Positions 2,292 through 61,528 are shown, numbered from the stretch's first letter. The stretch is 64,000 nucleotides of DNA from Nanobdellota archaeon (GCA_024654505.1 JANLHN010000003.1:4314-68313); one strand, 5' to 3'. Translations and numbers: made by a program. Notes: a model not told the origin generated them from the letters alone.

Positions 2292-3152
2292 ATGAAAAGA
2301 GGATTGGCTTTTATAGGGCTATTTATAGTTGTCTTTTTATCATTGGTTGTTAGCGCAGAGAGCAGAGAAATATCTCAATTTTCTACTTATTATAATGATA
2401 ACATCGCGGGAACGTCTTCTGTTGATAGGATATTTGGAAATCAAAGAATAGATGTTTATCTTGATGAAGAATTGTCTTATCATTTGATTACTTCAGAAGG
2501 AAAGATTATTGAAGAGGGAAATGGTGGAGTCGAGAAGCCATCACTTAATATTTATGTTGGTAGCGGTGTTCTTAATGAGTTAATGGAAGGTACTTTAGAT
2601 TTTCAAGAGGCATTGGCCACTGGAGGGATTGAGTATAGGGGTGTTGGTTTCATTTCTAATATCAAGTTTAGAATTCTCCATTTTTTCCAAAACCTATTTG
2701 TTAAACCAAAGGCTCCTAAAAATGAGATTAATGATTTGGGTTCAGAGTGTGGGAATAATAAATGTGAGGCTGGAGAGAATCCAAAGAATTGTTATAATGA
2801 TTGTTGTGGAACTTGTGGAGATGGAAAATGTAAGGGATATAGTTGTGGTGAAGACAATCCTTTAAGTGAGAAGTATTGTCCCAAACAAACGGGTGGAGAT
2901 TGCGGGAACATTTGTGGCGATGGAACCTGTGATAAGGGAGAAAATCCCCAAGAATGTCCTGCAGACTGTGATTGGATAAAGTGTGGCGATGGAATATGCT
3001 CTCCTGGAGAAGATGATTCGTTAAGTGATAAGTATTGTCCTAAACAAACGGGTGGAGATTGTGGAAACATCTGTGGCGATGGAACCTGTGATAATGGAGA
3101 GAACTTTAGGGAATGTCCTGGAGATTGTAAGATTGTAATGGGGTTTGATTGA
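2292..3152 (+). CDS. secreted Cys-rich repeat protein; N-terminal signal/TM followed by tandem CGDGTCDxGEN..ECPxDC repeats
   Basis: Hydrophobic N-terminus. Three or more near-identical ~40-aa Cys-rich repeats (KYCPKQTGGDCGNICGDGTCD). Confidence 0.6.
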   Translation: MKRGLAFIGLFIVVFLSLVVSAESREISQFSTYYNDNIAGTSSVDRIFGNQRIDVYLDEELSYHLITSEGKIIEEGNGGVEKPSLNIYVGSGVLNELMEGTLDFQEALATGGIEYRGVGFISNIKFRILHFFQNLFVKPKAPKNEINDLGSECGNNKCEAGENPKNCYNDCCGTCGDGKCKGYSCGEDNPLSEKYCPKQTGGDCGNICGDGTCDKGENPQECPADCDWIKCGDGICSPGEDDSLSDKYCPKQTGGDCGNICGDGTCDNGENFRECPGDCKIVMGFD

Positions 3153-3302: not shown

Positions 3303-3758
3303 ATGGCAGGAGATAGAGAAGTTAGCGATATTGAGAAATTGATGGCTAGATCAACAATTAATTTTCCTAGATCAATTGATCATAAAGAAGTTGGTGGCCT
3401 TTTAACTCATGTGGCCAGAGGAATTGGACCTGCTACAACAATTAATTATCGAGTTTCAAGTAATGAGAATATTGTTCCTGAAAGAAATAATTTGGGGAGT
3501 CTTACTGGGAAACATATTTCTGACCCAGGATCTGCAACGACTAGTGGAAATATATCTACTTCCTATGGTGAAGGAAGTGGAGCTGAACTTGCTATAATAT
3601 CTTTTGATTTAAAGAGAGAACATAGAACAGATATTAGAGGATATGATTCAATGAAATTCTTTACAACACCTGGTTATTCTTTAGAAGAACTTAATCCTAC
3701 TGAGTTGAGGTTGATGGATAATGTCCGAGCCCAAGTTAGAGGGTGGTTTGGTGTTTAA
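3303..3758 (+). CDS. hypothetical protein (ATG start; leaderless behind a conserved promoter)
   Basis: The ORF has a conserved CACAATAATTCTTTTAAACC promoter 38 nt upstream of the ATG. The same module precedes the genes at 15293 and 62180. Confidence 0.5.
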   Translation: MAGDREVSDIEKLMARSTINFPRSIDHKEVGGLLTHVARGIGPATTINYRVSSNENIVPERNNLGSLTGKHISDPGSATTSGNISTSYGEGSGAELAIISFDLKREHRTDIRGYDSMKFFTTPGYSLEELNPTELRLMDNVRAQVRGWFGV

Positions 3759-3828
3759 GGTTAGATTATTTTTTCTTCGGCCCGGTATTCTTTCTAGAAA
3801 AGATTGAGTTTTAGAACTAAAACCAAAG

Positions 3829-4707
3829 TTATTTAGTCAATATAACTACTAAATCTTCCCTATCTTCTTTACCTGGGACAATACATGGAAATTTTCTTTC
3901 TTCATAAGCCATTTCTAAAGTTTCAAAACTTGTTCTTCTTTTTGCAGGGTCATCTACAGGACCCTTATATCTTGGGGTTTTTTCTCCCATCGGGCTTGCA
4001 TCATAAACATAGGCGCCACAAATAACCCCTCCCTGGCTTAAATGATCTCTTATTGGAGAGACTATTTTCCTACAGAATCTTTCTAGATGATTAGGACTAT
4101 GGGGAAACATACTTTGAGTATAATCGGCTAGATTTGAGAGCATGACTACCCCAAATTCTTCATCTAATTTAGATGCTAAGTCTTTGGCAGATGAGTTGAT
4201 TAATTTAACCTCCGATTTTACTCTTGCTCTAACTGCTTCATATTGTTCTTCTGAATGTAAATAAGGATTACTTCGAATTCTTAATTTATCAATATCAAAT
4301 CTTTTATTAAATAACTTTGATCTTCGAACTTCTTCCCCATCCATTTCATTGATTCTGTAGACTCCATCAAAAAATCTAACGCAACCAAGAGATAATTCGT
4401 TTCTTATGGAAGAGTAAACCTTAAAATCCATTGTTCCTCCATCGCCTAGTAAAAAGAATCTTTTGAACTGCTCAAAATCTAACCTTTTTAATGCTTTAAT
4501 TTTAAGTTCTGCAAAGAAAGTAGCAAGAGTATTTATGTCAAAACAAACAACATCTTCTGCTCCAAATAAAAAAGAATTTATCATATGGTCTGCAGAACCT
4601 GTGACTGTTAGAACTTTCTTTCCTTCTAAATTTAAATTAGGCATGTATCCTGCAAGATTTTCTGTAGTAAATGGATAAACTTTTGACCTAGTTTCAAATG
4701 TAGGCAT
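3829..4707 (-). CDS. putative SAM-dependent methyltransferase-like protein (DUF3419/BtaA-like)
   Basis: Its N-terminal region, with GSADHM after a glycine-rich stretch, resembles class I methyltransferase-like DUF3419. It is the last gene of the radical-SAM operon. Confidence 0.35.
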   Translation of the reverse strand: MPTFETRSKVYPFTTENLAGYMPNLNLEGKKVLTVTGSADHMINSFLFGAEDVVCFDINTLATFFAELKIKALKRLDFEQFKRFFLLGDGGTMDFKVYSSIRNELSLGCVRFFDGVYRINEMDGEEVRRSKLFNKRFDIDKLRIRSNPYLHSEEQYEAVRARVKSEVKLINSSAKDLASKLDEEFGVVMLSNLADYTQSMFPHSPNHLERFCRKIVSPIRDHLSQGGVICGAYVYDASPMGEKTPRYKGPVDDPAKRRTSFETLEMAYEERKFPCIVPGKEDREDLVVILTK

Positions 4708-4729
4708 CTTATTGAGTTTTAATAAAAGA

Positions 4730-5467
4730 TTATTTAGAACTTTGAATAATATCTAATAATCTACTTTTAATCCTCCTTTTTACTTCTGTTGGACCTTTTC
4801 TTTTACTAAGTATTAAATATAATTCTGCTGCTCTTGCTATTAGCCATGTATTTGTGTCTTCTCCAAGAAGAGAATAATCAAAATCAATATTTGTTCTATA
4901 AATTCTTTCTATCTCCTTCCTTCTATCTGGGTTAGAGATTATCATTGAGGCAACATCTCTCCCAGGATGTCCCAGTCCACTTAACTCAAAATCAAAATAA
5001 TAATTTTGCCCCTGAAATGTGACCATATTTTTGTCCTGTAAGTCTCCATGAAGAATTGTTGTTAATTCCATTTCTACTTTTAAGTCAGATAGTGCTTTTT
5101 CAACAAGAGCCCCAAGTTCACCGAAGGCATCCTTATTTTCAAGAATAAATGAGGCAACAGCCTGTATGTTATGGGGGAATAACAATCGATTATTAGGAAG
5201 GGGATTTTTTATAAAATATGAATGGACTCTTGCCCATTCTGCGGCTGTTTGAAGAATGTCTTTTTTTTCAGTTTCTATAAAATGTGTTTTGAGACAAAGC
5301 CCTTCAACCCCATAAACTTTTGGCGTTCTAACTAATCCTGTTTTTTGGAACAAATCATAAAAGAATAATTCTCTTCTTAGGAAAATTGGCTTTTGGTGTC
5401 TTTTAGATACAATTTTTTGTCCTTCAACTTCGTAAACCTCTGAAAAATTCCGATTAAAATCTTCCAT
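4730..5467 (-). CDS. aminoglycoside/choline-kinase-like phosphotransferase (APH family)
   Basis: Catalytic HGDLQDKN motif (the APH HGD..N motif) and a downstream D-[FY] region. There is a 2-nt gap to the upstream methyltransferase. Confidence 0.6.
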   Translation of the reverse strand: MEDFNRNFSEVYEVEGQKIVSKRHQKPIFLRRELFFYDLFQKTGLVRTPKVYGVEGLCLKTHFIETEKKDILQTAAEWARVHSYFIKNPLPNNRLLFPHNIQAVASFILENKDAFGELGALVEKALSDLKVEMELTTILHGDLQDKNMVTFQGQNYYFDFELSGLGHPGRDVASMIISNPDRRKEIERIYRTNIDFDYSLLGEDTNTWLIARAAELYLILSKRKGPTEVKRRIKSRLLDIIQSSK

Positions 5468-5468
5468 G

Positions 5469-5972
5469 TTAAACCTTTTTGGCCAGAAATAAAATCATTT
5501 TATGTCGATGTGGGGGTTTACCATGTTCTTTGGAAAGCACAGAGGTATTGTAAATGATTTCCCAATCAGGGTATAATTTATTTAATACCTCTTCATCTGG
5601 ATAAAAATAAATCTCGTTTTCTGGATTCTCTTCATTAGACATACAAATTAGAAAGTGGAAGCCTTCTCTAATAGTGTTTTTTTGCATTTTTTTTATTAAT
5701 TGTTTAGCTTCTTCTTCTTTTAACAAATGTAAAATCCCCGTCCCAACAATTAAATCGTATTTCGGCTCGAATTTAAAGTCTAATATGTCTTGTTGGATGA
5801 ATGTGAAATTCTCTGATGATTGGGTTGTGGGTTTTCTATCAATTCCTATTACATTTATTCCCAAGTCAATAAATTTTTGAGAAAATTTACATTTACCACA
5901 GCCGATATCCAAAACAGATGTAGGGTTTAATTTTTGCATAATCTCCACAATTATAGGTTTAGCTGGTTGCAT
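5469..5972 (-). CDS. class I SAM-dependent methyltransferase
   Basis: Motif I VLDIGCGKCKF and motif II IDRKP. Overlaps the radical-SAM gene by 14 nt. Confidence 0.7.
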   Translation of the reverse strand: MQPAKPIIVEIMQKLNPTSVLDIGCGKCKFSQKFIDLGINVIGIDRKPTTQSSENFTFIQQDILDFKFEPKYDLIVGTGILHLLKEEEAKQLIKKMQKNTIREGFHFLICMSNEENPENEIYFYPDEEVLNKLYPDWEIIYNTSVLSKEHGKPPHRHKMILFLAKKV

Positions 5973-7050
5973 CTTTTGTATACCTGTCCTTGAGGTCTCC
6001 TGGTTTAACTAGGTTTCTAAAACACATAGGGTCTTTATTCATAAAATCTCCTGTTGTTGCATATGCTATTGCTCTACATCCCTTACAGTGAGAAACATAT
6101 TCACAACCAAATTCTTTTTTTAAACGCTCCAAATCTCTTAAATCTTTCATGACTTTCTTTTCTGTGATAAGCCTAACTAGTCCTTCACTAATATGCCCTA
6201 TCTCTATTGGGAGTCTTCTACATGGATAAACTACTCCATTAGAAAGAACTGCAACTCCTGAAAATCCTGCACCACAACCCCCTAAATATTTTCCTTTTTC
6301 TCTAGAAGCCTCTTTTAAAGGGTCATCACAATGCATTAAGTGCCATAAGACTTCTGTTTCGAGGAGAGATATTTTATCTCCATATCTTTCTTCTAATTCT
6401 CTTTGGACCTTATAAATATCATACATCCCTTTTGCATCAATAAATTCGGGGTCATTAACTCCCAGCTCTCTTGTTGGAACATAGGACTGAATTCCAAATA
6501 TATCTGCTCCAGCCTCTATAGAATCTTTTATGGCCTGCTCAATATGGTCTTTGTTTGATTGCATGGCTGTAAAAGAGACTGTAACTCCTATATCTTCTGC
6601 CCGACAATTAGCAATACCTTGCATAGCCCTATCAAAGGCATAGGGTCTTTGTCTTACATCATTATGCCTTTCTCTGTCTCCATCAACTGAAATTTGTAAT
6701 CTTTTTATTCCTCTTTCTTTCAATGCTCTTGCTTTTTCAGGTGTTATTAGGGTTCCATTAGTAAGAATTTTTGTGGCTACACCCCTTTGTTGAGTATACT
6801 CTAAGATTTTAAATAAATCCCTTCGCTTTAGAGGTTCTCCACCAGAAATGTGAAACCTTGGGTCCATACCCCATCTTTGAGATGTATCTACAAGATCATC
6901 AACCATGTCTTCTACTTCGGAGAGACTCATTAAGTCAGAGTCTTCTTGTCTATGGGCTTTTTCACCCTTTTCATTATGGTAACAATGGCGACACCTAAGA
7001 TTACAATCATTTGTCGAATCCCATTGAATGAACAGTTGCTTTTTTGTCAT
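5959..7050 (-). CDS. radical SAM enzyme with C-terminal SPASM domain (peptide-maturase type)
   Basis: CNLRCRHC CxxxCxxC cluster at the N-terminus. The SPASM signature GGCGAGF..YPCRR..C..CKGCR..PMC is present. Confidence 0.8.
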   Translation of the reverse strand: MTKKQLFIQWDSTNDCNLRCRHCYHNEKGEKAHRQEDSDLMSLSEVEDMVDDLVDTSQRWGMDPRFHISGGEPLKRRDLFKILEYTQQRGVATKILTNGTLITPEKARALKERGIKRLQISVDGDRERHNDVRQRPYAFDRAMQGIANCRAEDIGVTVSFTAMQSNKDHIEQAIKDSIEAGADIFGIQSYVPTRELGVNDPEFIDAKGMYDIYKVQRELEERYGDKISLLETEVLWHLMHCDDPLKEASREKGKYLGGCGAGFSGVAVLSNGVVYPCRRLPIEIGHISEGLVRLITEKKVMKDLRDLERLKKEFGCEYVSHCKGCRAIAYATTGDFMNKDPMCFRNLVKPGDLKDRYTKDATS

Positions 7051-7102
7051 TTGAATACCTTTCTATCTAAAACAACCTCTTAAATAGGCCCTAATTAAAA
7101 TT

Positions 7103-7285
7103 CTATTTTTCTTTTGAAGCGTAGCGATCGTTGCCATCGCAACTGACACAATTACTGCACCCCGAAACACAGGTATATCCTTCCTGTCTTACTTCGGGCA
7201 TCATGCTAGAGAGATATGCTTCTTCTCCGGCAGTCATTACACTAGGGGCCTCTTCAGCTAAAGCTTCTAAAACCGCATTTACCAT
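7103..7285 (-). CDS. putative RiPP precursor peptide (acidic helical leader plus Cys-rich core CVSGCSNCVSCDG)
   Basis: A 60-aa ORF lies 52 nt upstream of the rSAM/SPASM gene on the same strand. The leader is MVNAVLEALAEEAP.., and the C-terminal 25 aa carry four Cys. Confidence 0.5.
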   Translation of the reverse strand: MVNAVLEALAEEAPSVMTAGEEAYLSSMMPEVRQEGYTCVSGCSNCVSCDGNDRYASKEK

Positions 7286-7344
7286 ATTTTTAATTAGCGA
7301 TTGAGATATTTAAATGTTGCTAAATATAGGATATCTGAGACAAT

Positions 7345-7734
7345 TCACCTCTTCTTTGGTCCCGTATTCTTTCTAGAAAAGATTGTTAGTAGCTTATCAT
7401 CGATGTTGTCGGTGATTTTAGAGGGCCTTTTCTTTTGATTGACAACGCTTCTTCTCAAAATATCTTCGATTTGTTCGTTTAGGGTAAAGAGATTTTTGAC
7501 CGCCCTTTTTTCTAATGAATCTATGATTGATTTATCCAAGTAGGCGAATGTTTTGACTTTGTTACCCACATCTTTTTTTGTTATAATCTTTTTTGATTCT
7601 TTATTGAGTTCAGAGAAGACTTCTTTTATTGTTTTTTCTGTCCAATTATATTTGAGAAGTAGATTCTTTATCATTTGGTCGCTGTAACCTCTTCGCCTTG
7701 CTTCAAGAACATAGTTGAGGAGTTTTTGGTTCAT
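7345..7734 (-). CDS. hypothetical protein with possible ribbon-helix-helix-like C-terminal region
   Basis: ORF only. KTFAYLDKSIIDSLEKRAVKNL resembles a CopG-like RHH strand-helix. Confidence 0.3.
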   Translation of the reverse strand: MNQKLLNYVLEARRRGYSDQMIKNLLLKYNWTEKTIKEVFSELNKESKKIITKKDVGNKVKTFAYLDKSIIDSLEKRAVKNLFTLNEQIEDILRRSVVNQKKRPSKITDNIDDKLLTIFSRKNTGPKKR

Positions 7735-8336: not shown

Positions 8337-8792
8337 TTAATCAAGCTTTTTTAATAACTCCTTATCTTTATCTATATTCTCTTTTGTTATCCTATTAAAT
8401 TCGGGATGTTCATCTGTAAGTCTTGAATGTGAAGAGAGCCAATTTGTAACTGTTTTTACATCTGTTTTTCCTTGAGCAACACTTCCAGTAACAAAATTAA
8501 TTATCCCTGTCTCAGAGGCATCAATAACTATCGCCCCAGAAGCCATAATTCCTTTTGCTATCTCAAACGCAGTTCTTTTATTTCCATTTTCAAAAGGATG
8601 TCCTGCTCCTGCATAATAAAGAAAATTTCCTGCTTGTTTTATTGGGTCTATTTCGTTATTTACTGAATCTACTGCAAACTCTAAAGTTGACTTATTTATA
8701 ATTCCAAAATTCCCTCCACTAACAGATAAAATATGTTTGTTGTGATTAATTATTTCTTCTGTAGTTCTTTTAATATTTTTAAAATAAGTCAT
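8337..8792 (-). CDS. doc: Doc/Fic family toxin (death-on-curing-like)
   Basis: HPFENGNKRTA matches the Doc variant of the Fic motif, HxFx(D/N)GNKR. Confidence 0.75.
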   Translation of the reverse strand: MTYFKNIKRTTEEIINHNKHILSVSGGNFGIINKSTLEFAVDSVNNEIDPIKQAGNFLYYAGAGHPFENGNKRTAFEIAKGIMASGAIVIDASETGIINFVTGSVAQGKTDVKTVTNWLSSHSRLTDEHPEFNRITKENIDKDKELLKKLD

Positions 8793-9439
8793 CTCCCATC
8801 ACACCACCCGCAACTCTTCTTTGGACAATCTTCGTTCAACAGCTTCAAGGCATCCTTCCAGGCTTTTTCTGCCATTTTGGTGTCAACCCTCATCTTAACT
8901 AGTTCGGTATCAAAGATGACTTCGCCGGTTGTGGCGACTTCTTTTGGAACATAGAATAAAAGGAAGAAGAAGTCTTCTGTTTCATGGCCGATTTTTCTTA
9001 GGAGGAAGTTGTAGGTATTTTGTTGGAGTCTGTAATGTTCTGCAGTATCTTCTTTTAGGGCGTAGCCCCTTGTTTTGTAATCTAGGACGATTAGTTTTTT
9101 GCCTTTGACTAGGATATTATCTATTGCTCCATGAAGTTCGTTTCCGGCCTTGTCTGTGAATGAGATTCCCTTAAAGTTGCTTTGCCAGACTTTCATCTTT
9201 TCTTCATCATCAAATAGCTTCATGTTTGTGCAGTGTTGGTGTTCGCAGAGTTCTGGAGGTAGTTCTCCCTTGTCTCGGAATTTGTTAAAGTGGTGTTTTA
9301 AGATTTTGTCCATGCCCGAGGGAAGAGATGGGAAGGGGCCTGAAGGTCTTTTCCATACTTTGTGTTGTGTAAGCCAGAAACAGCGGGGGCAGTCTTTCAT
9401 GAGATTAATGGCGGAGGGGGAGAGCTTGTGTGTGGTCAT
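8789..9439 (-). CDS. Cas4-like PD-(D/E)xK nuclease with 4-Cys Fe-S cluster signature
   Basis: An N-terminal CPRCFWL Cys is paired with a C-terminal C..CGWC triad. IVLDYKT is the PD-(D/E)xK core. The ATGA 4-nt overlap with doc indicates translational coupling. Confidence 0.6.
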   Translation of the reverse strand: MTTHKLSPSAINLMKDCPRCFWLTQHKVWKRPSGPFPSLPSGMDKILKHHFNKFRDKGELPPELCEHQHCTNMKLFDDEEKMKVWQSNFKGISFTDKAGNELHGAIDNILVKGKKLIVLDYKTRGYALKEDTAEHYRLQQNTYNFLLRKIGHETEDFFFLLFYVPKEVATTGEVIFDTELVKMRVDTKMAEKAWKDALKLLNEDCPKKSCGWCDGR

Positions 9440-9720
9440 TTTTTCTTTAGTTTTATCTCTCCTTTTGTTGCTGTTGCTTCTAATTCATCACCTTCTTTAA
9501 AACCCGAGTCTTTCACTACATCTTTTGGGATTACCACCTCATATTTAGGATATTTCTTTCCCTTTTGAGTATAGTGTTTTTGTAGCTTCATCCCCTTTTT
9601 AAAAGGAAATATTATTTAAAGATATCGGCGCCGAAAGGTTTATAAAGTTTAGGCGCCTAAGTGTTCCATAATTAAAAAGAGTATACAAAACATTTTAAAT
9701 GAAAGAGGTTAGGGGTTGAT

Positions 9721-10782
9721 ATGGAAAAAGAGTGGAAGGCAATAAGCTTATTTGCTGGGTGTGGAGGAGATACCCAAGGTTTAGAGGACGCTGGAATTAA
9801 GGTTGTGGGATTTGTTGAATTCTGGAAGAGGGCAATTGAAACACATAAACTCAATTTTCCAGAATCTACTTTTATTGGGCAAGATGTTGGGGGAGATATA
9901 ACCAAGATTTCTGATGAAGAGTTTAGGAAATATGAGGGGCAAATTGATGTTTTATTTGCCGGGTTTCCATGTCAGGGATTTTCTCATGCTGGAAAGAAAG
10001 ACCCAAACGATACAAGGAATAAATTATTTTGGGAGTTTGTTAGAGCTACAAAATTAATAAAACCTAAATGGATAATTGGAGAAAATGTTGCCGGATTATT
10101 ACATAGAAAAACTGATGATGGGGAAAGTGATGTAGCGGAAGTTATTGTTAAAGCATTTGAAGAAATCGGTTATAAAATGGCTAAACCAAAAGTTTTGAAA
10201 GCGGAAGAATATGGAGTCCCTCAAAAAAGGCGGAGGGTTTTCTTTGTTGGTAGTAAAGAGGGTATAGAGTTTGGTTTTCCAAAACCCTTACACACCAAGA
10301 ATAATTTACCCACAATAAGGCATTTAATTGAACTAACTAATATAAATTCTGTTGAAAGTAATCCCTCAGAGGTTCATGAATTAAAGGAAAAGGATATATT
10401 ATTCTATGATTCTGATGAAGAGCCAACAGGGAAACCACATCCCTATTTATTAATGAAATTAAAAGAAGGGAAAATTTCTTTTGGTAGAAGAATATCCCCC
10501 CACCATATAGAGATGGCAAACTTAGACTCTCCTACCAAGACAATCCATTGTGGATATAGTTTTCAACCAAGATTATATGTAGGAATAAAAAATAATAAAG
10601 GTTTTTTTCTAAGAGATTTTACAAACAAGGAATTGGCACAGATACAGGGCTTTCCAAAAGAATATATGTTCGCGGGGAATCGAGCAGATGTTGTAAAGCA
10701 AATTGGAAATGCTGTTCCTCCAAAACTTGTTGAAGAAATAGCCCGAGAGATTATGAAAAGAGATAAAAAATTGAGTGGTTAA
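9721..10782 (+). CDS. dcm: DNA (cytosine-5)-methyltransferase
   Basis: Motif I FAGCGG, motif IV GFPCQGFS, ENV, QKRRR. Confidence 0.9.
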   Translation: MEKEWKAISLFAGCGGDTQGLEDAGIKVVGFVEFWKRAIETHKLNFPESTFIGQDVGGDITKISDEEFRKYEGQIDVLFAGFPCQGFSHAGKKDPNDTRNKLFWEFVRATKLIKPKWIIGENVAGLLHRKTDDGESDVAEVIVKAFEEIGYKMAKPKVLKAEEYGVPQKRRRVFFVGSKEGIEFGFPKPLHTKNNLPTIRHLIELTNINSVESNPSEVHELKEKDILFYDSDEEPTGKPHPYLLMKLKEGKISFGRRISPHHIEMANLDSPTKTIHCGYSFQPRLYVGIKNNKGFFLRDFTNKELAQIQGFPKEYMFAGNRADVVKQIGNAVPPKLVEEIAREIMKRDKKLSG

Positions 10783-10844
10783 GTTATAATTTTGTCTAGA
10801 TGGAAGTGCATTTTACTTAAATAGCATACACCCCTTTATTATTC

Positions 10845-11687
10845 ATGCCTCAAAAGATAGATTCAATTGGGAGAGCACATGAATGGACTACAGCTTCCCT
10901 TTTAGATGATTCTGAAAATTTAAAGAAGAAATCAAAAGAGTATCTAAATCGGCTTTCATTGAAAATAGATCAAGATAGGGTGATTTTAGCAAGTAAAAAA
11001 GCTTCTGAAAAGATTAGGGAATTAGTGGGACAAGAAATAAAAACTGCCAAAGTTGTTGGGGAGGAAAATAAAAAACAAGGTGGAGAAGATTTCGATATTT
11101 TATTAGAATTGGTGGACGGATCTAGGAAAGGATATTCTCTTAAAACCCAAAATAATTTTAGTGGAGTTAATGTTAGGAATTTTACTCCAAACTCTCTTTG
11201 TAAAATCTTTACGGGTAAGGGATTTGAAGATTTTTTAGATAACGAAGAAAAAAAGAATTATTTGGAATTGGGTGATCTTTATTCAAAAGATATGGTTAAA
11301 TCAGAGGTTATTGGGAAATGGGGAGCTCAAAAATTAGCCGAGATTTTGAGTAGGGAATTTTCTATAGACAAAATATCTTTTGTTAAAAATTTACTTTCAG
11401 AAATGAGGGGAGGAACTAATCTTCTTTTGACTGTGGTTAATAAAAATGGAGAATTTAAGGGTTATTGTACTAAATTTTCTTCCATTTTCGAGAAGCTGAG
11501 AAAGGAACCGGAGAATCTTAGAATATCTTTCCAGGGTATAAGTGTTCTCTTTTATCTAAAAGAGGATAGAATATGTAAGTTTGATATCTATATGCAATCT
11601 ACTAGCTCTGGAAAGAAAAAGAAACTCCGGGGAGTAATAAGGATTGACTTTATTCCCGACAATTCTGGAATTCAAGAAACCTTATAA
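10845..11687 (+). CDS. hypothetical protein; candidate restriction endonuclease or partner of the adjacent MTase
   Basis: Position only, 62 nt after the C5-MTase. No recognisable motif. Confidence 0.25.
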   Translation: MPQKIDSIGRAHEWTTASLLDDSENLKKKSKEYLNRLSLKIDQDRVILASKKASEKIRELVGQEIKTAKVVGEENKKQGGEDFDILLELVDGSRKGYSLKTQNNFSGVNVRNFTPNSLCKIFTGKGFEDFLDNEEKKNYLELGDLYSKDMVKSEVIGKWGAQKLAEILSREFSIDKISFVKNLLSEMRGGTNLLLTVVNKNGEFKGYCTKFSSIFEKLRKEPENLRISFQGISVLFYLKEDRICKFDIYMQSTSSGKKKKLRGVIRIDFIPDNSGIQETL

Positions 11688-14344: not shown

Positions 14345-15112
14345 ATGAAACCAAAAATAAAATTTAGCATTCCAAAGCCTGAAAAGGCGGCAGAGTTTGT
14401 TTATTCTCTAAAAGAAAATCTAGGGGGAACACTGGGAGATGCTAAAGAAAGGTATGAGAATGAGGCCGAATGTATATTTATTCCCTTAAGTAAAAGTTTG
14501 GTTGAAAGGATGATTCTGAGTAAGAAATTAACTCCGAAACTAAGAGAAGAACTCTCAAAGATAATTACGCCGATATTGGAAAGAAAAAAAGAAAAGTTGG
14601 AGGGGATGATAGTTAAGATTGAGAGATTATGGGGGGAAGTAGGGAGTAGTTATTGGGAAGAAATAGAGAATTATTTTCCTGGGATGTTTGAAAAGGAGTA
14701 TAATGCTTATTTAACTAATGTTGTTTGCGGGGCTTATTTTGGGAAAAATGAAGTTACTATTCCCCTTTACAAGGGAGAAAATGAGAAGTTATTCGTCTAT
14801 GTTATGGCTGAAGAATTATTACATCTTGTTTATTGGAAATTTTTGGAAAAGCTTTTTGGTAAAGAGAAAACAGAGTTTATGTGGAAGTCAGGAAAGAAAA
14901 AGTGGAATGCATGGAATATTAGTGAGGTAATCCCTGAGTATATTTTAATTAATAATCCTAAATTCCAGAAGTTGGGGTGGAGAAAGTTTGATAGAACAAC
15001 ACATTATCCTTGGCTTGATGATTTGAAGGAGATTCTTAATCCTTTGTGGGAAAAAAAGACTAGTTTTAAAGATTTTGTAATAAAAAGTTATAAGGTTTTG
15101 GGAGTTTTATGA
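14345..15112 (+). CDS. hypothetical protein
   Basis: ORF only. Confidence 0.4.
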   Translation: MKPKIKFSIPKPEKAAEFVYSLKENLGGTLGDAKERYENEAECIFIPLSKSLVERMILSKKLTPKLREELSKIITPILERKKEKLEGMIVKIERLWGEVGSSYWEEIENYFPGMFEKEYNAYLTNVVCGAYFGKNEVTIPLYKGENEKLFVYVMAEELLHLVYWKFLEKLFGKEKTEFMWKSGKKKWNAWNISEVIPEYILINNPKFQKLGWRKFDRTTHYPWLDDLKEILNPLWEKKTSFKDFVIKSYKVLGVL

Positions 15113-16664: not shown

Positions 16665-17570
16665 TTAAATCGTCGTTACTCGAACCTTTCCTTCAGCAAT
16701 TACAAAGGTATTTTCTATTTGACTGACTGGGGCCTTGCTTTTTTCTATCAACAAAGGGTAGTGATGTAAGATATCTTGTTTGACTAGGTTTGGTAAGATG
16801 AATTTTAATCTTGGGAGGCCGGCTTTCTCTAGCCATCTGGAACAGAATGGCCGGGTCTTGTAATTATCTTTGATGAATTGGATTACTTTTCTTGAATCAT
16901 TATCTCTAACTTGTGCTTCGGATATTAGGGCGTAGATTCCTCCGAGGTTTCCCTCATAGATATCTCCAATACCTGTTGTAACAAAGGGTTCTACTGCGAT
17001 TGCGATATTGTCTAGGATTGTTTTGTTGTCCGTTCTGTTATTTGAGACTGTTAGTCCTGCGTGGATAATATGTTGTCCTAATTGATGTCCTGAAAGGGAT
17101 TTGATTGTAGAGAACTGGGTGTTGTTTTCTTTGTTCCATTCTTGGACTGTGTCTTGAACCGAATTTCCAATTTTATTAACTTCTATTCCAGGTTTGATAA
17201 CTTCAAAAAGATTTTTCATTATTGTTTCATTTAGGTTAATCATTTCTTTATGTCTATTGTCTTCTGTTAGGTCTATGGTCATTGCAGTGTCTGCGATGTA
17301 GCCATCAATTGCGATTCCAATATCTATTGTGAAAAGTCCTTTTGCAACTTCTTCGCAGCCGATTTCTGGGGTAAAGTGTGCAGCGATTTCATCAATACAT
17401 AAATTAACTGGAAAGGCGGTCTCGGCCCCCATTTCTTCTATCTTGTCATCTATTGCAATTGCTATGTCAATTAATTTCATTCCTGGTTTGACTAGGTTTC
17501 TTGCGAACTTTTTTATCTCTGAGGCAATTTGTCCTGCCTTGATATAAGACTCAATTTCATGTTTATTCAT
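16665..17570 (-). CDS. map: methionine aminopeptidase, archaeal type 2
   Basis: Pita-bread metal ligands and a MetAP2-type insert. The N-terminus is archaeal-like, MNKHEIESYIKAGQIASEI. Confidence 0.85.
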   Translation of the reverse strand: MNKHEIESYIKAGQIASEIKKFARNLVKPGMKLIDIAIAIDDKIEEMGAETAFPVNLCIDEIAAHFTPEIGCEEVAKGLFTIDIGIAIDGYIADTAMTIDLTEDNRHKEMINLNETIMKNLFEVIKPGIEVNKIGNSVQDTVQEWNKENNTQFSTIKSLSGHQLGQHIIHAGLTVSNNRTDNKTILDNIAIAVEPFVTTGIGDIYEGNLGGIYALISEAQVRDNDSRKVIQFIKDNYKTRPFCSRWLEKAGLPRLKFILPNLVKQDILHHYPLLIEKSKAPVSQIENTFVIAEGKVRVTTI

Positions 17571-17589
17571 CCTATTTTATGTTAAAAGA

Positions 17590-19158
17590 AGTATTTAGGT
17601 TTTGTGGAAACGGCCTTTACGGCCGTTTTTAACCCGGGGCTCCCGGGTTTGGTTCCAAGAGGGTTGTTGTGTTCTTTGTGTGCTGTATAGTGTACTATAA
17701 GATAAATAAAAAAATTCATCCAACATCAGCCCGCCCCCTCCTGGTAAAGAAACCCAGGGTAGGAGAGGGGGGGCGGGCTACGACGGACGAGGAGGGGTGA
17801 GCAGGGAACTTTCTCCTACTCCTCAGGACAACGAGACCCTCTAGGAGAGGGGGACCGACCTACCGTGCCATTCCATCCCGAGGGAGGGAAGGGAGGCGCC
17901 GTGGGAAGCGCAGGGCAGGGATGAAACGACCTTGGGGTTTGCCAAACCACCAAGACAGGAGGGTAGTCGGTCGTCGTGCTATTCTCACGACTTTTCCTGG
18001 TTTGAGCAGGGAGAGAGACCCACCAAGGGAGGAGAGGGCCTTGGCAAGTCAAGATGGGTTAGTCGCCCCCAGCAGCTTAGTCGCGCTGGATGCACGAAAT
18101 TGACGGGATGCTTCACCCGACAGGTGCTGGGGGCGACTGGGTACTGTCTCGATGAAACGGAACTTCCGCTCCACCGCACTTTCCCAAGATTTCTGGTGTC
18201 CCGCCGGTGTCACTTCCTTCCGTTTGGAGGGCCCTTTTGTCCCTTTGGATATCCTTCATCCTGAGTTTTTTTTACCCTTCCTTTCACAGTATGGGTTTTT
18301 TCTCAGAAGTAGGTTTTCCTCGGGGAGATTCTACGGATTTGTCCGCTTCCTCCCTCGCATCCGTGAGCAACACCGACGGGACTAGCCCTATCAAAGGGGG
18401 GAACCCACTACATGGCAAGGGTGTACCTCTAACCAGTTTGGAGAACCCCATTTAGCCACTTATCCCTTGCAGGGTGGTTAGGGTTCGCCTTACTAGCACG
18501 TGAGGCCAGTGCCTAGTTTTCCGGGATCGCCGCCAGTGTGATAGGACCATGGGTTTCAAGAAGGAACTACCGCCCCCTCAGTTCCCTTTTGGGCAACTTA
18601 CCCTTGGGGTACTGGGGCTTTTAGGGGGCGGTTTTGATGCCGAGTAGATAGGGTTCTCCGCCGCCAATACTTTCGTGTTAGACGGCGGACCCATCAGGTA
18701 AAGGAAAAGGTCTCGGTGTGCCGGCCCGCTTACCTACAACATCTAGGGGAGGAGACCTCTTGCTACGCGCGGTCGCTCAGAGTGCCGACCTGGGCGGAGG
18801 GTATGCCCACAAACACTACCTTCCAGACTCTCGTGGTGACCGAGGGGCGGAAGTGTGATTCTCATTGCGGGCTTCATTCGCTCCACAGGACAGAAGACAG
18901 GGGCGGACCGGCACGATTTTCAGGCCAGGTGGGTGAAGCTAAGACATTGCCGAAGACCTTGACAGGAAATGCACAAGACGACCCCACCTGGCCCTAGATT
19001 TCAGTGAGAAATACCTGAAACACCTCTCAGCGACGGACACAGCAACAACTAGAAATAGAATTCTTATTCGATTGCTCGAATCTTCTTCCTGGTTTCTGGT
19101 GTTGCTAGGAATCGTCGTTGGTGGTTCTAAGATGACGGGGTCATCGAAGGAAGGTGTG
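17590..19158. other. GC-rich non-coding block (about 1.5 kb) with no long ORF on either strand; structured RNA or decayed foreign DNA
   Basis: Only 60-110-codon ORFs on both strands. The 16S/23S universal motifs searched for were not found. A GC hairpin, CCCGCCCCCTCCT..AGGAGAGGGGGGGCGGG, lies at the left edge. The edge motifs match those of the 27-34 kb island. Confidence 0.4.
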
Positions 19159-29052: not shown

Positions 29053-30333
29053 CTAGGTGAGGGGGAACTCGAGCAGGTCCTTGGTCCAGTCGCCGTTCTC
29101 CATGATGACGACCTCGCGGCCGTCCTGGAGCGTGGCGGTGATGATGGTGTCCATGTCCGAGACCATGACGTCGTGGTGGGTGTTGGACATGTTGCAGCCG
29201 ACTTCCTTCTTCTCCTTGTTGCCCATCTTGTCACCACCCCGGAGAGCGGTGGCGTAGGCCATGCCGGTGGCGACGTGGCACGACGCGTTCTCGTCGTAGA
29301 GCGTGTGCTGGTAGACGCGACCGGTCTGGAAGATGGGGGAGCGCTTGACGGCCACGAGAGCCACCTCGCCGAGGAAGCGAGCTCCCTCGTCGGTGTCCAC
29401 CATCTTCTCGTACGAGTCGAGGTTGTTGCCCTCGATCTTGACGAGCTTGCCCTCCTTGAAGTACAGGACGAGGTTCTCGACCTTGTTGCCGTGGACGATG
29501 CTGGGGCGCGTGCAGCGCAGGACGCCGTTCGCGGTCCGCAGGTCAGGGGTGGTGAAGGTCTCGAACGTGGGGATGTTCAGGGTGACCATCTTGCCCTTGG
29601 CCGTGTCCTTCTTCGCCGAGATCCACTCGTGCTTGGGATGGAAGCCGACGGTGAAGTCGGTTCCCTCGCCGGCGTAGTGGAGGTTCGTGATCCGCATCGC
29701 GTTGAGGCGGGCCGTGACATCCATGAGGGTGTCGACATGTGCGTCCCAGAGCTTGAGGCAGTTGGGCGAGTCGGCGAATGTGAATGAGAAGACGTCGTCC
29801 CAGAGGGCGGCGACAGCCTCGTCCGTCGGGAGGTCCGGGAAGACCTTGGCGGCCCATCCCGGAGAGGGCGGGCCGGCGAGACACCATGCCACCATGCGGC
29901 GGTTGATGCCTTCTTCGCGCCAGCGGTTCAGGAGCGTCATCGTCGTCGTCGTGTAGGCCTGCATCTCCTCTTCGAGGCCCTTGAAGACGTCGGGGTGGTT
30001 CTGGCTTCGGAAGCCCAGGAAGCACCCTTGGGTCTCGATGACGCGTTCCATCTGGATCCGCCGCCACGTGTGTACGAGGTTGCGGTCCTGCTCGGGGGCG
30101 TGGCGCAGCTGGATTGCGGTCAGCATCTCGGAGCCGAACCGGTGGTCCACGTTGCGTGCCCCCAACTTGTAGGCCACCTCGGAGGCCATCTCGGCGAGTC
30201 TGACGTCGGACTCTTCGAAGGCCACGACGACGAACTCTCCTTCTTGGACGTTGAGGCCACGCCTCACGATCAGCTCCACGTAGTTGCGGAGTTTCTCATC
30301 GAAGCTCAGGACCTGGGTCTCTTGGACACTCAT
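29053..30333 (-). CDS. M29 family aminopeptidase (AmpS/aminopeptidase T-like)
   Basis: MSVQETQVLSFDEKLRNYVELIVRRGLNVQEGEFV is a typical M29 N-terminus. The internal ATG with a GGAGGAAGG RBS is chosen over the 24-codon upstream extension. Confidence 0.7.
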   Translation of the reverse strand: MSVQETQVLSFDEKLRNYVELIVRRGLNVQEGEFVVVAFEESDVRLAEMASEVAYKLGARNVDHRFGSEMLTAIQLRHAPEQDRNLVHTWRRIQMERVIETQGCFLGFRSQNHPDVFKGLEEEMQAYTTTTMTLLNRWREEGINRRMVAWCLAGPPSPGWAAKVFPDLPTDEAVAALWDDVFSFTFADSPNCLKLWDAHVDTLMDVTARLNAMRITNLHYAGEGTDFTVGFHPKHEWISAKKDTAKGKMVTLNIPTFETFTTPDLRTANGVLRCTRPSIVHGNKVENLVLYFKEGKLVKIEGNNLDSYEKMVDTDEGARFLGEVALVAVKRSPIFQTGRVYQHTLYDENASCHVATGMAYATALRGGDKMGNKEKKEVGCNMSNTHHDVMVSDMDTIITATLQDGREVVIMENGDWTKDLLEFPLT

Positions 30334-30430
30334 GTGTCTAATTTCCTTCCTCCGTCTGCATACCTCACGCGAGGTTCCGGGCTGCGGACCGGCTATCCTA
30401 AACACCTGTTCAAGATAGGTTGCATTAAGG

Positions 30431-30502
30431 GCTCTTCGTCCCTCCGGCCGAAGAGCTTGTTGTAGAATTGTGGCTGAGCCCTATTTGTATAGCACCGGGC
30501 CC
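30431..30502. repeat. 72-nt intergenic module (hairpin GCTCTTCG..CGAAGAGC plus TATACAAATAGGG), copy A
   Basis: Copy B at 33617-33686 is about 90% identical. Confidence 0.6.
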
Positions 30503-30530
30503 GGGGGTGCTTGTCGGCGTTCGGTTCCGG

Positions 30531-33470: not shown

Positions 33471-33475
33471 GTCTA

Positions 33476-33615
33476 ACTTCTTTCCGCTCTTGCGAGCATG
33501 AGCCTACTCTCTTCCCACGAGATTACACAATGAGTGTTTTCTCGCTTGACTTCTTGCACCATGCAAGTTCCTGGGCTTAGAACCAGGCGCACCTTGGAAG
33601 GTGTGGTGGGTTAGA
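33476..33615. repeat. 140-nt 5' leader/promoter module, copy 1 (upstream of the MVP gene)
   Basis: Near-identical (2-3 mismatches) to 34343-34483. It contains the inverted repeat TTGCA-CCA-TGCAA. Confidence 0.7.
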
Positions 33616-33616
33616 G

Positions 33617-33686
33617 CGCTCTTCGTCCCTCCGGCCGAAGAGCTTGGTTGTAGAAATGATGGGCCCTATTTGTATAGCACCGGGCC
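33617..33686. repeat. 72-nt intergenic module, copy B
   Basis: See 30431-30502. Confidence 0.6.
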
Positions 33687-33710
33687 CATTGGTGCACGCC
33701 GTCGCCGAAG

Positions 33711-34337
33711 CTACGGGTTCTTGACTGGGGCGGCGATACCTGCGGGTGTCTTCCCGGGAGGGGTGGCCGCGGGTGCCTGACCGACTCCGGCAGGGGTCCG
33801 CTGGATGGGCTGGGCTCCCTTTGGGTCCTCTCCGCGGGGGTCCACCTTCTCCATCTTGGCGAACTCGAAGTCCGTCGTCCAGATGGTCATGTTGTCGTCT
33901 CCTCGCCGGAGGAACTTGGCGTCCTTCGTCGTGAACTCCAGCCACAGCGGACAGCCGTTCCGGAACAGGTTGCACAGGTTCTCTGCGGTGGCCTTGTCGA
34001 CTTGCTGTTCGCAGCGGATTCGCTGCTCGCTCGCGTCGTAGGCCTCGAACCAGATGTTGACTGGGAGTTCCTTGCCCTTGATGATCCGGATGGCTCCCAC
34101 GTTCCATCCGTCGAGGGTCCACTCTCCCGAGGTGGGGAGGGAGGAAGTGTAGACGACCGGGGCCGGCCTGGGGGCGGGCACCGGAGCCGGAACAACAGGG
34201 GTCGGGGCCGGAACGACTGTCAGGGTCGTGGTCGGCCGGTCGAGAGCGTGGCGGTCGCAGTTCTGGTGGCGATCGGTCATGCACCCGGTGAGGGTCAGGC
34301 TGGCGATGAGGGCCAGTGCGAACAGGATGCGCTTCAC
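33711..34337 (-). CDS. lipoprotein (signal peptide with lipobox LTLTGC)
   Basis: MKRILFALALIASLTLTGC, a Pro/Ala-rich linker and a GTG start. Confidence 0.55.
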   Translation of the reverse strand: MKRILFALALIASLTLTGCMTDRHQNCDRHALDRPTTTLTVVPAPTPVVPAPVPAPRPAPVVYTSSLPTSGEWTLDGWNVGAIRIIKGKELPVNIWFEAYDASEQRIRCEQQVDKATAENLCNLFRNGCPLWLEFTTKDAKFLRRGDDNMTIWTTDFEFAKMEKVDPRGEDPKGAQPIQRTPAGVGQAPAATPPGKTPAGIAAPVKNP

Positions 34338-34342
34338 GGGAT

Positions 34343-34483
34343 TCTTCCTTCCGCTCTTGCGAGCATGAGCTTACTCTCTTCCCACGAGATTACACAACGA
34401 GTGTTTTCTCGCTTGACTTCTTGCACCATGCAAGTTCCTGGGCTTAGAACCAGGCGCACCTTGGAAGGTGTGGTGGGTTAGAG
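34343..34483. repeat. 140-nt 5' leader/promoter module, copy 2 (upstream of the lipoprotein gene); ends exactly at the island/host boundary
   Basis: See 33476-33615. Confidence 0.7.
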
Positions 34484-34884
34484 TGACTTCTTATTTCTAT
34501 CAAGAACTAGGACTCAAGTAGTAACATATAGGTATTTCACTGATTTACCGACGTGAAATTGGTGATTTCTCGACGGAAAACCCTGTCTTTAGTAAAGCTC
34601 TAGCTACATAGAAGAATGATACCCTTTGTTGAAATCGGTTATTTCTAACTGATTTCGAGGGTGTTCCGCTGTGTTTCTGGAGTGTCGCTAAGGTGAAATA
34701 TGTGGTACGAAGAACGACAGATGTCGTTCGAGCGGTATGCTTTCGCATTATGTTACTACTTTTGTATGAATATTTATAAAAAAACCCCTTTAAAAATCTT
34801 TCGATTATGTTGTCCTTTAATAGTGACAGAGGATTAGGAGATTCCTATAATTTTGGATGTTAATAGTTAGAAATATTGGTCTTT

Positions 34885-61455: not shown

Positions 61456-61528
<73 letters not shown>

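Follow-up and report, generated by a model that had tools for sequence, protein, structure and literature searches.

Is the 60-amino-acid (aa), cysteine-rich open reading frame (ORF) that precedes a radical S-adenosylmethionine (SAM) enzyme gene in the DNA of a Nanobdellota archaeon a chance neighbour, or is it the substrate of that enzyme? The question arises in a 64,000-nucleotide (nt) stretch (GCA_024654505.1, JANLHN010000003.1:4314-68313; hereafter the window, from whose first letter positions are counted), in which a first-pass annotation had proposed an operon for a ribosomally synthesized peptide that is modified after translation (RiPP). Our comparison with related loci shows that the genes for the precursor, the radical SAM enzyme and a methyltransferase form a conserved, co-diversifying trio, and we consider it probable that the locus is a cassette of RiPP type whose radical SAM enzyme acts on the peptide. 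Judged from the homologues retrieved, the cassette family is restricted to DPANN archaea (Woese-, Pace- and Nanoarchaeota) and was previously uncurated.

Conservation of the peptide and its enzymes

Five minus-strand genes make up the operon, all found by ORF reading at the coordinates given in the first-pass annotation:

7103-7285, minus strand: precursor peptide, 60 aa
5959-7050, minus strand: radical SAM enzyme, 363 aa
5469-5972, minus strand: methyltransferase, 167 aa
4730-5467, minus strand: kinase, 245 aa
3829-4707, minus strand: DUF3419-like protein, 292 aa

The precursor gene ends 52 nt before the radical SAM gene, which overlaps the methyltransferase gene by 14 nt; the kinase gene follows after 1 nt and the DUF3419-like gene after a further 22 nt. 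The earlier spacings agree with these except for the methyltransferase–kinase gap, which had been put at 2 nt, and the domain calls (radical SAM, SPASM, class I methyltransferase, APH and DUF3419) are all backed by Pfam. The five proteins are deposited at NCBI as MCR4323396-MCR4323400, where their names say no more than radical SAM protein, BtaA family protein or hypothetical protein, the last being that of the precursor (MCR4323400). Because the homologues are labelled Pacearchaeota, Woesearchaeota or Nanoarchaeota, the attribution of the locus to a DPANN archaeon holds.

The precursor contains YTCVSGCSNCVSCDGNDRY and reads in full MVNAVLEALAEEAPSVMTAGEEAYLSSMMPEVRQEG-YTCVSGCSNCVSCDGNDRYASKEK. 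As first described, it divides into a leader (approximately residues 1–36), with the conserved motif EEAYLSSMMPEVRQEG, and a core (approximately residues 37–60, YTCVSGCSNCVSCDGNDRYASKEK) with four cysteines, Cys39, Cys43, Cys46 and Cys49. Precursors of this kind match no curated family in Pfam or NCBIfam, and a second precursor or paralogous enzymes were sought in the window and not found.

We compared the locus with 67 loci (numbered with the prefix L) whose radical SAM enzymes are 40–77% identical to that of the window, 30 from species-representative genomes and 37 from metagenome contigs; cassette content was established by tblastn searches of every locus with the window proteins and by clustering of all neighbouring ORFs. 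The first-pass annotation had suggested looking for precursor–enzyme pairs in relatives, and these were found in 60 of the 67 loci: a cysteine-rich ORF lies directly upstream of the radical SAM gene, ending 6–59 nt before it or overlapping its start by 8 nt. Among the other loci, L021 has a precursor-like ORF immediately downstream of the enzyme gene, four (L025, L030, L106 and L107) have a truncated enzyme gene and no precursor, and in L113 the contig begins within the enzyme gene. This leaves L112, which has no precursor-like ORF by the radical SAM gene, as the sole unexplained exception.

Two sequence patterns are common to the peptides across loci, M-x-x-x-x-L-E at the N terminus and, in the leader, the motif E-x-x-[YF]-[LF]-x-[SK]-[MYI]-[MLV]; the CxxC-rich C-terminal cores that follow are of several types, four of them main ones: (a) Y-[TS]-C-V-[ST]-G-C-x-x-C-[VI]-S-C-[GD]-G-N-D, to which the window belongs; (b) C-x-[TS]-C-N-[NS]-C-G-S-G-[DN]-C-x-S-C-C-x-x-x-D-D; (c) Y-x-C-D-P-C-D-A-C-G-P-x-x-C; and (d) N-C-N-T-C-[KR]-Q-C-P-G-C-G-C-M-C-N-N-D. 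These types map onto clades of the radical SAM enzyme in a neighbour-joining tree, and enzyme and peptide have therefore diversified together. Within type (a) the mean ratio of non-synonymous to synonymous change (pN/pS) is 0.45 (19 sequences, 171 pairs), and the block YLxSMMPExRQEGYTCVSGC is near-invariant. The small ORF thus withstands the objection, raised with its first description, that it might not be conserved in relatives: the leader is kept and the core co-varies with the enzyme clade. A conserved leader, a variable core and co-inheritance with an adjoining enzyme gene, the genetic features in the general definition of a RiPP gene cluster, are all found in the precursor and radical SAM pair.

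The region upstream of the precursor is also conserved in its spacing:

7307..7314, minus strand: TTTAAATA, which resembles an archaeal TATA box, 29 to 22 nt before the ATG of the precursor

Of 45 distinct loci, 30 have a TATA box (TTTAWATA with no more than one mismatch) whose start lies exactly 29–30 nt ahead of the ATG of the precursor gene. An archaeal TATA box at this spacing places the transcription start at about the ATG, which implies a predicted transcript that begins at the precursor and is leaderless or nearly so; the precursor would therefore be the first, leaderless cistron, with the four enzyme genes following in a tight operon. Conservation beside the enzyme gene, the leader/core pattern and the fixed TATA spacing together mark the small ORF as a conserved gene that looks expressed rather than a reading frame that arose by chance.

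The third constant member is the methyltransferase, which adjoins the radical SAM gene in 54 of the 59 loci with enough flanking sequence and is represented in each of the four main clades, (a) to (d), with divergent transcription in one sub-clade. Five informative loci lack it (L021, L025, L096, L101 and L112), two of which (L096 and L101) belong to a small clade with different cores. The first-pass annotation had thought of methylation as a plausible tailoring step; the gene does belong to the cassette, but its presence in 54 of 59 loci and four clades makes it a universal third component rather than an optional tailoring gene, and the conserved core of the cassette is precursor, radical SAM enzyme and small TehB-like methyltransferase.

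Enzymes of the cassette and their nearest known systems

The enzyme has the hallmarks of the radical SAM superfamily: it matches Pfam Radical_SAM (PF04055) at 3.8e-26 (92.7 bits, cut-off 29.5), and its motif CNLRCRHC (residues 16-23) is of the form CX3CX2C, with C16-x3-C20-x2-C23 invariant in 31 sequences. The SPASM domain (PF13186) scores 26.0 bits (cut-off 21.5), and six C-terminal cysteines are invariant (C259, C277, C316, C322, C325 and C343), in the pattern C-x12-G-x4-C ... C-x5-C-x2-C ... x17-C. The canonical SPASM signature has seven, CX9-15GX4C ... CX2CX5CX3C ... C. A 'full SPASM' domain, as first annotated, therefore stands as a Pfam match above threshold but is slightly overstated as a cysteine set, because the first cysteine of CX2CX5CX3C is missing; the bacterial relatives described below keep it. 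The radical SAM core begins at residue 8–13, leaving no N-terminal RiPP recognition element (RRE), and no PqqD-like gene is present among the conserved neighbours.

No NCBIfam model reaches its cut-off with the enzyme:

ACGX-system radical SAM (TIGR04340): 185.5 bits, cut-off 400
AhbD (TIGR04545): 185.2 bits, cut-off 500
NirJ2: 173 bits, cut-off 500
SbtM: 105 bits, cut-off 350
MftC: 85 bits, cut-off 265
PapB: 84.9 bits, cut-off 340
ScfB-related model: 63.8 bits, cut-off 855

By sequence, the enzyme is closest in the PDB to CteB and SkfB, both of them thioether synthases. An AlphaFold (AF2) model of the enzyme (predicted local distance difference test, pLDDT, 88.8; predicted template modelling score, pTM, 0.88) superposes best on SkfB, BlsE, SuiB, PqqE and anSME, with template modelling (TM) scores of about 0.7, up to 0.72 over the full length; the predicted fold resembles that of SPASM and twitch enzymes which modify peptides (SkfB, SuiB, PqqE and anSME). 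Outside DPANN, the next relatives are approximately 33% identical and belong to Nitrospirota and Desulfobacterota. We considered these as true AhbD and rejected the assignment (165–195 bits, cut-off 500); they represent a different, unrelated system. They have no cysteine-rich ORF on either side of the radical SAM gene, and the peptide is therefore specific to the DPANN clade. Since no NCBIfam cut-off is reached and these bacterial relatives are neither AhbD nor accompanied by a peptide, the DPANN enzymes constitute, on sequence comparison, a distinct family defined by its peptide partner. The first-pass annotation had named a grouping with cofactor-maturation enzymes as a result that would undo its proposal; the enzyme falls outside those families, and it is the predicted maturase of the precursor core.

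The methyltransferase matches Pfam TehB (4e-15) and Methyltransf_25, retains the motif VLDIGCGKC and finds TehB homologues in the PDB at 4e-9. It scores 62–65 bits against the NCBIfam TehB equivalogs, whose cut-offs are 218–303, and is best described as a generic TehB-like class I enzyme. The PDB match 6MRO was considered as a possible MCR cysteine S-methyltransferase, which would have favoured S-methylation; this lead was dropped, since the only citations found were in a preprint on crystallisation methods and a paper on the structure of METTL6.

The remaining two enzymes are accessory. The first-pass annotation was right to place both in the operon, but the kinase is limited to the subfamily of the window and the DUF3419-like protein to a few loci within it. 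The kinase is a phosphotransferase of the APH/choline-kinase fold (PF01636, 31.8 bits, cut-off 23.2, 1.6e-7) with intact HGDLQDKN loop and DFE, and occurs only in clade (a), in 18 related loci besides the window, with cores of the form Y[TS]CV[ST]GC. Only one clade (a) locus, L004, can be shown to lack it, and there the core reads YNCVSGC instead. The DUF3419-like protein, named 'BtaA family protein' by NCBI, passes the Pfam threshold (PF11899, 43.2 bits, cut-off 28.2) over residues 7-114 only, corresponding to positions 8-116 of the 385-position model. PDB sequence searches with the kinase and with the BtaA-like protein returned nothing significant.

Within the cassette, the BtaA-like gene is found only in the window and in L001, L003, L005, L081, L082 and L250; its order is methyltransferase–DUF3419–kinase in these six relatives and methyltransferase–kinase–DUF3419 in the window. 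In all carriers (the window and the six complete cassettes) the core ends in SCDGND, with an aspartate right after the last cysteine, whereas those clade (a) loci without the gene that could be scored (for example L002, L007, L085, L086 and L087) have SCGGND or a near variant, for instance SCGGRD or SCGGNP. Covariation of this kind is what would be expected if the peptide is the substrate. Distant BtaA-like homologues (35–46% identity) lie in a separate conserved cluster (L161:1098-7043, L162:3306-8833, L251:2049-6906 and L248), which comprises a B12-binding radical SAM protein, a CoaE-like kinase (sometimes fused to a radical SAM protein), a radical SAM protein, DUF3419, an 82–154-aa ORF, an ATP-grasp protein and a methyltransferase; it occurs on contigs of several samples and looks like another uncharacterised biosynthetic cluster. 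Because these homologues adjoin radical SAM and ATP-grasp genes, the BtaA-like subfamily seems to be a tailoring enzyme of radical SAM-type clusters rather than a lipid enzyme.

In clade (c), the subfamily with CDPCDACGP cores, the place of the kinase is taken by a conserved protein of approximately 225 aa with an invariant CGHELxH (HExxH) and a downstream NE[SA]LT. Its gene directly follows the methyltransferase gene in 15 loci (numbered within L013-L023, L029, L030 and L102-L110; for example L017:4181-4867). Neither Pfam nor NCBIfam offers a match for this protein, which is a candidate leader peptidase. L085 has an additional copy upstream on the opposite strand. The window has only a weak, distant paralogue of it, the ORF at 14345-15112 (plus strand, 255 aa; E about 1e-3 in a small database), which has EELLH in the place of HExxH and no Pfam match and which we do not count as part of the system.

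How does the cassette compare with known systems? The first-pass annotation saw in it the canonical architecture of sactipeptide, ranthipeptide and SCIFF-type clusters. That comparison holds for the kind, a cysteine-rich precursor with a radical SAM/SPASM enzyme, but not for membership of the named families: although its architecture is of a known kind, the cassette fails every curated family test (ACGX, SCIFF/ScfB, PapB and AhbD). Its distinguishing features are the obligatory TehB-like methyltransferase, the lack of an RRE, the six SPASM cysteines and the accessory APH kinase, BtaA-like and HExxH proteins.

Closest by NCBIfam score is the ACGX system of methanogens, itself a predicted RiPP system, which likewise pairs a short radical SAM/SPASM enzyme (approximately 340–360 aa) without an RRE with an adjoining small cysteine-rich peptide; the match is end-to-end (residues 8-346 to model positions 5-340). 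However, the score is under half of the cut-off, the cassette precursors match no curated peptide family and have CxxC arrays rather than A-C-G-x repeats as cores, the DPANN system always includes a TehB-like methyltransferase, and its hosts are DPANN archaea, not methanogens. Sacti- and ranthipeptide systems, SCIFF included (CteB, PapB, SkfB and AlbA), also have a cysteine-rich precursor gene directly upstream of a radical SAM/SPASM gene. They provide, in CteB and SkfB, the best PDB sequence matches and, in SkfB, the best structural match, and the cassette cores have Cys-x3-Asp spacings like those linked by PapB, such as C49-D-G-N-D53. Membership is not indicated by the PapB and ScfB-related scores, and the precursor does not match SCIFF. 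The cassette enzyme further differs from these maturases in lacking an RRE and the first cysteine of CX2CX5CX3C, and the cassette differs from their clusters in having no peptidase or ABC transporter and in its obligatory methyltransferase partner. An N-terminal RRE is common but not universal in sacti- and ranthipeptide maturases.

The best full-length superposition is with anSME (TM 0.69–0.72 over approximately 370 columns), which also has no RRE. That enzyme acts on cysteine or serine within a peptide, its substrate being a sulfatase and not a dedicated small peptide. The SPASM-region cysteine spacings of anSMEcpe, including the x17 before the last cysteine, are closely similar to those of the cassette enzyme; the two differ in identity (approximately 18%) and in having eight versus six auxiliary-cluster cysteines. 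The accessory enzymes have partial parallels too. APH-fold kinases occur in RiPP clusters, as LxmK does in class V lanthipeptides, and act in a setting with a core serine or threonine beside cysteine; here, however, the NCBIfam match to LxmK is not significant (E = 0.03) and no phosphoSer/Thr lyase or cyclase partner is present. The cassette kinase may serve in tailoring, self-protection or a dehydration step. BtaA is a SAM:diacylglycerol 3-amino-3-carboxypropyl transferase; the cassette protein resembles it in passing the DUF3419 threshold and in its NCBI name, but only the N-terminal 110 or so residues align, it is shorter than the model (292 aa versus 385 positions), and its closest relatives lie in peptide- or radical SAM-type clusters, not in lipid pathways.

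In the literature on ACGX, on RiPPs and radical SAM enzymes of DPANN archaea, on ranthipeptides of Woesearchaeota and on biosynthetic gene clusters of Nanoarchaeota, we found no description of the cassette. One survey of archaeal RiPPs counted 221 biosynthetic gene clusters in Nanoarchaeota, giving counts only, and reported that efforts to activate radical SAM-related archaeal clusters were unsuccessful.

Taken together with these parallels, a maturation pathway can be proposed. The leader, centred on E-x-x-Y-L-x-S-M-M-P-E, would dock directly on the RRE-less radical SAM/SPASM enzyme, which would modify the core at or beside its four cysteines by means of a 5'-deoxyadenosyl radical and auxiliary iron–sulfur clusters. 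Thioether cross-linking is the commonest outcome of this enzyme class on cysteine-rich cores, and the likeliest single product would carry intramolecular Cys-to-carbon thioether cross-links of the sacti- or ranthipeptide type, in which cysteine sulfur is joined to the C-alpha (sacti) or C-beta/gamma (ranthi) carbon of another residue; thioether chemistry specifically is nevertheless a doubtful bet by analogy, the alternatives being an anSME-type oxidation or an SbtM-type heterocycle. The TehB-like enzyme would then methylate the product, with a thiol or thiolate-derived group as the best guess because the nearest relatives of this methyltransferase act on soft nucleophiles. The target of the kinase could be a hydroxyl, perhaps that of the Thr/Ser immediately preceding the first cysteine; alternatively, the kinase could inactivate the product for self-protection. 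The BtaA-like enzyme might transfer a SAM-derived methyl or 3-amino-3-carboxypropyl group, dependent on Asp50.

Direct repeats and the surroundings of the cassette

In the window, the operon is bracketed by a direct repeat:

7352..7385, no strand assigned: left copy, coincident with the final 11 codons of the flanking gene at 7345-7734 (minus strand), ending in IFSRKNTGPKKR and its stop codon
3773..3806, no strand assigned: right copy, 23 nt beyond the stop codon that closes the operon, a relic that still reads IFSRKNTGPKKK and a stop codon in frame

The copies are 34 nt long, 31 of 34 positions being identical, and are spaced 3579 nt apart; they are the only two in the window, where 0.00 are expected (100 shuffles), and enclose exactly the promoter and the five genes. 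All three mismatches are synonymous, and the right copy is non-coding. FSRK..GPKK is the conserved C terminus of the flanking-gene family, with homologues in L004 and L011.

In each of 34 non-redundant loci, the 350-nt segment preceding the precursor was aligned with a 350-nt segment around the cassette end, mismatched locus pairs serving as the null (99th-percentile score 14). Bracketing repeats are present in at least 8 of the 34 relatives, with scores of 16–77 (p at most 0.003 each); among them are identical repeats of 29/29 nt (L011 and L094), 26/26 nt (L004) and 21/21 nt (L024), and one of approximately 110/128 nt (L093). A wider scan adds L026 (166 nt, 96% identity) and L022 (38 nt). The repeat sequence is locus-specific. 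The upstream copy ends approximately 45–185 nt before the precursor ATG (approximately 45–100 nt in 6 of 8), just outside the promoter, and the start of the downstream copy falls anywhere from 16 nt before the last stop codon to 76 nt after it. Duplicated gene ends make up the repeat in the window, L026 and L093.

The genes flanking the cassette are not conserved, even in the closest relatives, and its distribution is patchy, covering approximately 30 GTDB species-representative genomes among those scanned. Given four truncated radical SAM genes and five disrupted precursors, some copies may be decaying. In L106 (6001-6693), L107 and L030 the N-terminal 130–150 residues of the enzyme are gone and the methyltransferase is kept together with the kinase or HExxH gene; in L025 the C-terminal third is gone, as are the methyltransferase and accessory genes. 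The precursor is frameshifted in L010, L014, L023 and L088 and carries an in-frame TAG in L015, between or near leader and core, with enzyme genes intact. L014 and L023 have each lost one G, from different G-runs, and L088 has a TA duplication; three of the five loci fall in one small clade. These disruptions may reflect pseudogenisation, sequencing error or recoding.

Direct repeats, non-conserved flanks, decaying copies and patchy distribution together suggest that the cassette, promoter included, is a mobile, accessory module. No recombinase is encoded between the window repeats. A flanking recombinase was considered and rejected, as only L250 has an integrase fragment (3678-3857, minus strand; a 59-aa tyrosine-recombinase N-terminal fragment matching Phage_int_SAM_4, approximately 340 nt upstream of the precursor) and nothing similar is seen in the other loci or in the window. 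Viral carriage was likewise rejected, the best IMG/VR match being 28% identical. A bolder proposal is that of a compact mobile element without its own recombinase, which would spread among DPANN archaea by inserting at gene ends with locus-specific duplications of 17–166 nt and make a peptide with an undescribed combination of radical SAM-modified cysteines, methylation, phosphorylation and a BtaA-type group for interaction of these obligate symbionts with their hosts or competitors; we regard this as speculative and improbable.

Other parts of the window are of separate interest. Beyond the flanking genes of the operon, the region 8337-11687 has a defence- or mobile-like look, with a Fic/DOC protein (8337-8792, minus strand), a PD-(D/E)XK nuclease-family protein (8789-9439, minus strand) and, from sequence reading, a protein resembling DNA cytosine methyltransferases with a FAGCGG motif (9721-10782, plus strand) and a 280-aa ORF that might be its restriction partner (10845-11687, plus strand). 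On the other side, at 2292-3152 (plus strand), lies a 286-aa protein with a signal-like N terminus and repeated cysteine-rich modules CGDGxCxxGENPxxCPxDC; it matches nothing in Pfam or NCBIfam, is probably secreted or located at the cell surface, and is unrelated to the operon. A 7-kb island at 27500-34500 has 55–66% G+C content (GC) in a contig of approximately 35% GC. It encodes a 979-aa major-vault-protein-like protein (30531-33470, minus strand; MVP_shoulder 1.9e-22, vault repeat 2.9e-11), an M29 peptidase (29053-30405, minus strand; 4e-115) and a protein that matches the RING finger weakly, and could be a horizontal acquisition or an assembly chimera. In a second GC-rich stretch (17500-19000, 51–58% GC) no ORF is convincing, and Rfam gives nothing at E-values up to 0.1. 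Over the 64-kb window, Rfam identifies a single transfer RNA (61456-61528, minus strand).

Role of the product and meaning for DPANN archaea

Several observations weigh against the proposal of a RiPP-type cassette with the peptide as enzyme substrate. The enzyme lacks an RRE and has six of the seven SPASM cysteines, and it scores equally for the tetrapyrrole enzyme AhbD and the peptide-associated ACGX family. Like the first-pass annotation, we found neither a transporter nor a protease, both usual in RiPP clusters, in or beside the window operon and the clade (a) cassettes, and no immunity gene is present in or near the clade (a) cassette, either among the ORFs of the window or among the conserved neighbours of its relatives. 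The enzyme gene is truncated in four relatives and the precursor is interrupted in five. Both accessory-gene correlations are weak: that of the kinase with threonine depends on one informative locus, that of the BtaA-like gene with aspartate on two neighbouring clades in the radical SAM tree, and they may reflect only one or two evolutionary events. The chemistry of the product, finally, is predicted from sequence.

The strongest competing explanation keeps the RiPP and differs only in the role of its product. The peptide could be matured intracellularly to a metal-binding peptide (a metallophore or metal buffer) or a redox cofactor, rather than to a secreted antimicrobial, with the radical SAM enzyme turning cysteines into metal-chelating groups and the methyltransferase capping them, in the manner of PQQ, mycofactocin or thiooxazole 'bufferins'. 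It would account for the missing transporter, immunity gene and, in this subfamily, protease; dense CxxC cores with acidic ends are typical metal ligands; SbtM (a thio(seleno)oxazole radical SAM enzyme), mycofactocin and PqqE maturases are among the significant sub-threshold NCBIfam matches; and Cys-derived thiooxazole RiPPs that serve as copper-binding peptides exist (PMC11626156). We nevertheless consider it unlikely, though with an appreciable chance. Non-syntenic sites, bracketing repeats, decaying copies and the patchy distribution fit an exchangeable accessory trait better than a housekeeping cofactor, and the fast, clade-specific diversification of the cores is more typical of interaction molecules.

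A more radical alternative would sever the peptide from the enzyme, making the latter an AhbD- or NirJ-type tetrapyrrole or small-molecule enzyme and the cysteine-rich ORF an unrelated neighbour, for example a regulatory or metal-binding protein. In its favour, AhbD (heme b synthase) and NirJ2 do rank high in the NCBIfam comparison, the enzyme resembles AhbD in its short length and domain layout and lacks an RRE, and some homologues are annotated by the Joint Genome Institute (JGI) as 'AdoMet-dependent heme synthase'. However, both scores fall far short of their cut-offs, a score just as high is obtained with the peptide-associated ACGX family, and no tetrapyrrole or ahb genes occur in the neighbourhood in the window or among the conserved neighbours; to our knowledge, DPANN archaea generally lack heme biosynthesis. 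The enzyme keeps its peptide in nine-tenths of the loci compared, and the core type co-varies with the enzyme clade. Retention and covariation are hard to explain otherwise than by a direct functional link between peptide and enzyme, and we judge the tetrapyrrole explanation very unlikely. Scarcely credible, lastly, is a metalloid module in which the unmodified cysteine-rich peptide binds As, Se or Te, the TehB-like enzyme methylates them and the radical SAM enzyme is auxiliary: the peptide is thiol-rich and the best family and PDB matches of the methyltransferase are to tellurite-resistance TehB, but its score (65 versus 303 bits) is far under the equivalog cut-off, a leader/variable-core split and co-diversification with the radical SAM enzyme are unexpected for a simple chelator, and the kinase, BtaA-like enzyme and HExxH protein are ill-suited to detoxification.

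DPANN archaea, whose genomes are very small, are believed to live on other cells; we know of almost nothing on their specialised molecules. The RiPP-type cassette described here is a concrete candidate for one, recurring in Woese-, Pace- and Nanoarchaeota with its own promoter and looking exchangeable. Its minimal version of precursor, radical SAM enzyme and methyltransferase spans approximately 1.8 kb, a size at which synthesis and co-expression are feasible, and this makes the system experimentally tractable. It could reveal the chemistry of an uncurated radical SAM/SPASM clade that lies between heme-synthase-like and peptide-maturase families, and could show what roles a TehB-like methyltransferase, an APH-fold kinase and a BtaA-like transferase play in peptide tailoring. 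The repeats that bracket it raise the separate question of how gene cassettes are exchanged among DPANN archaea.

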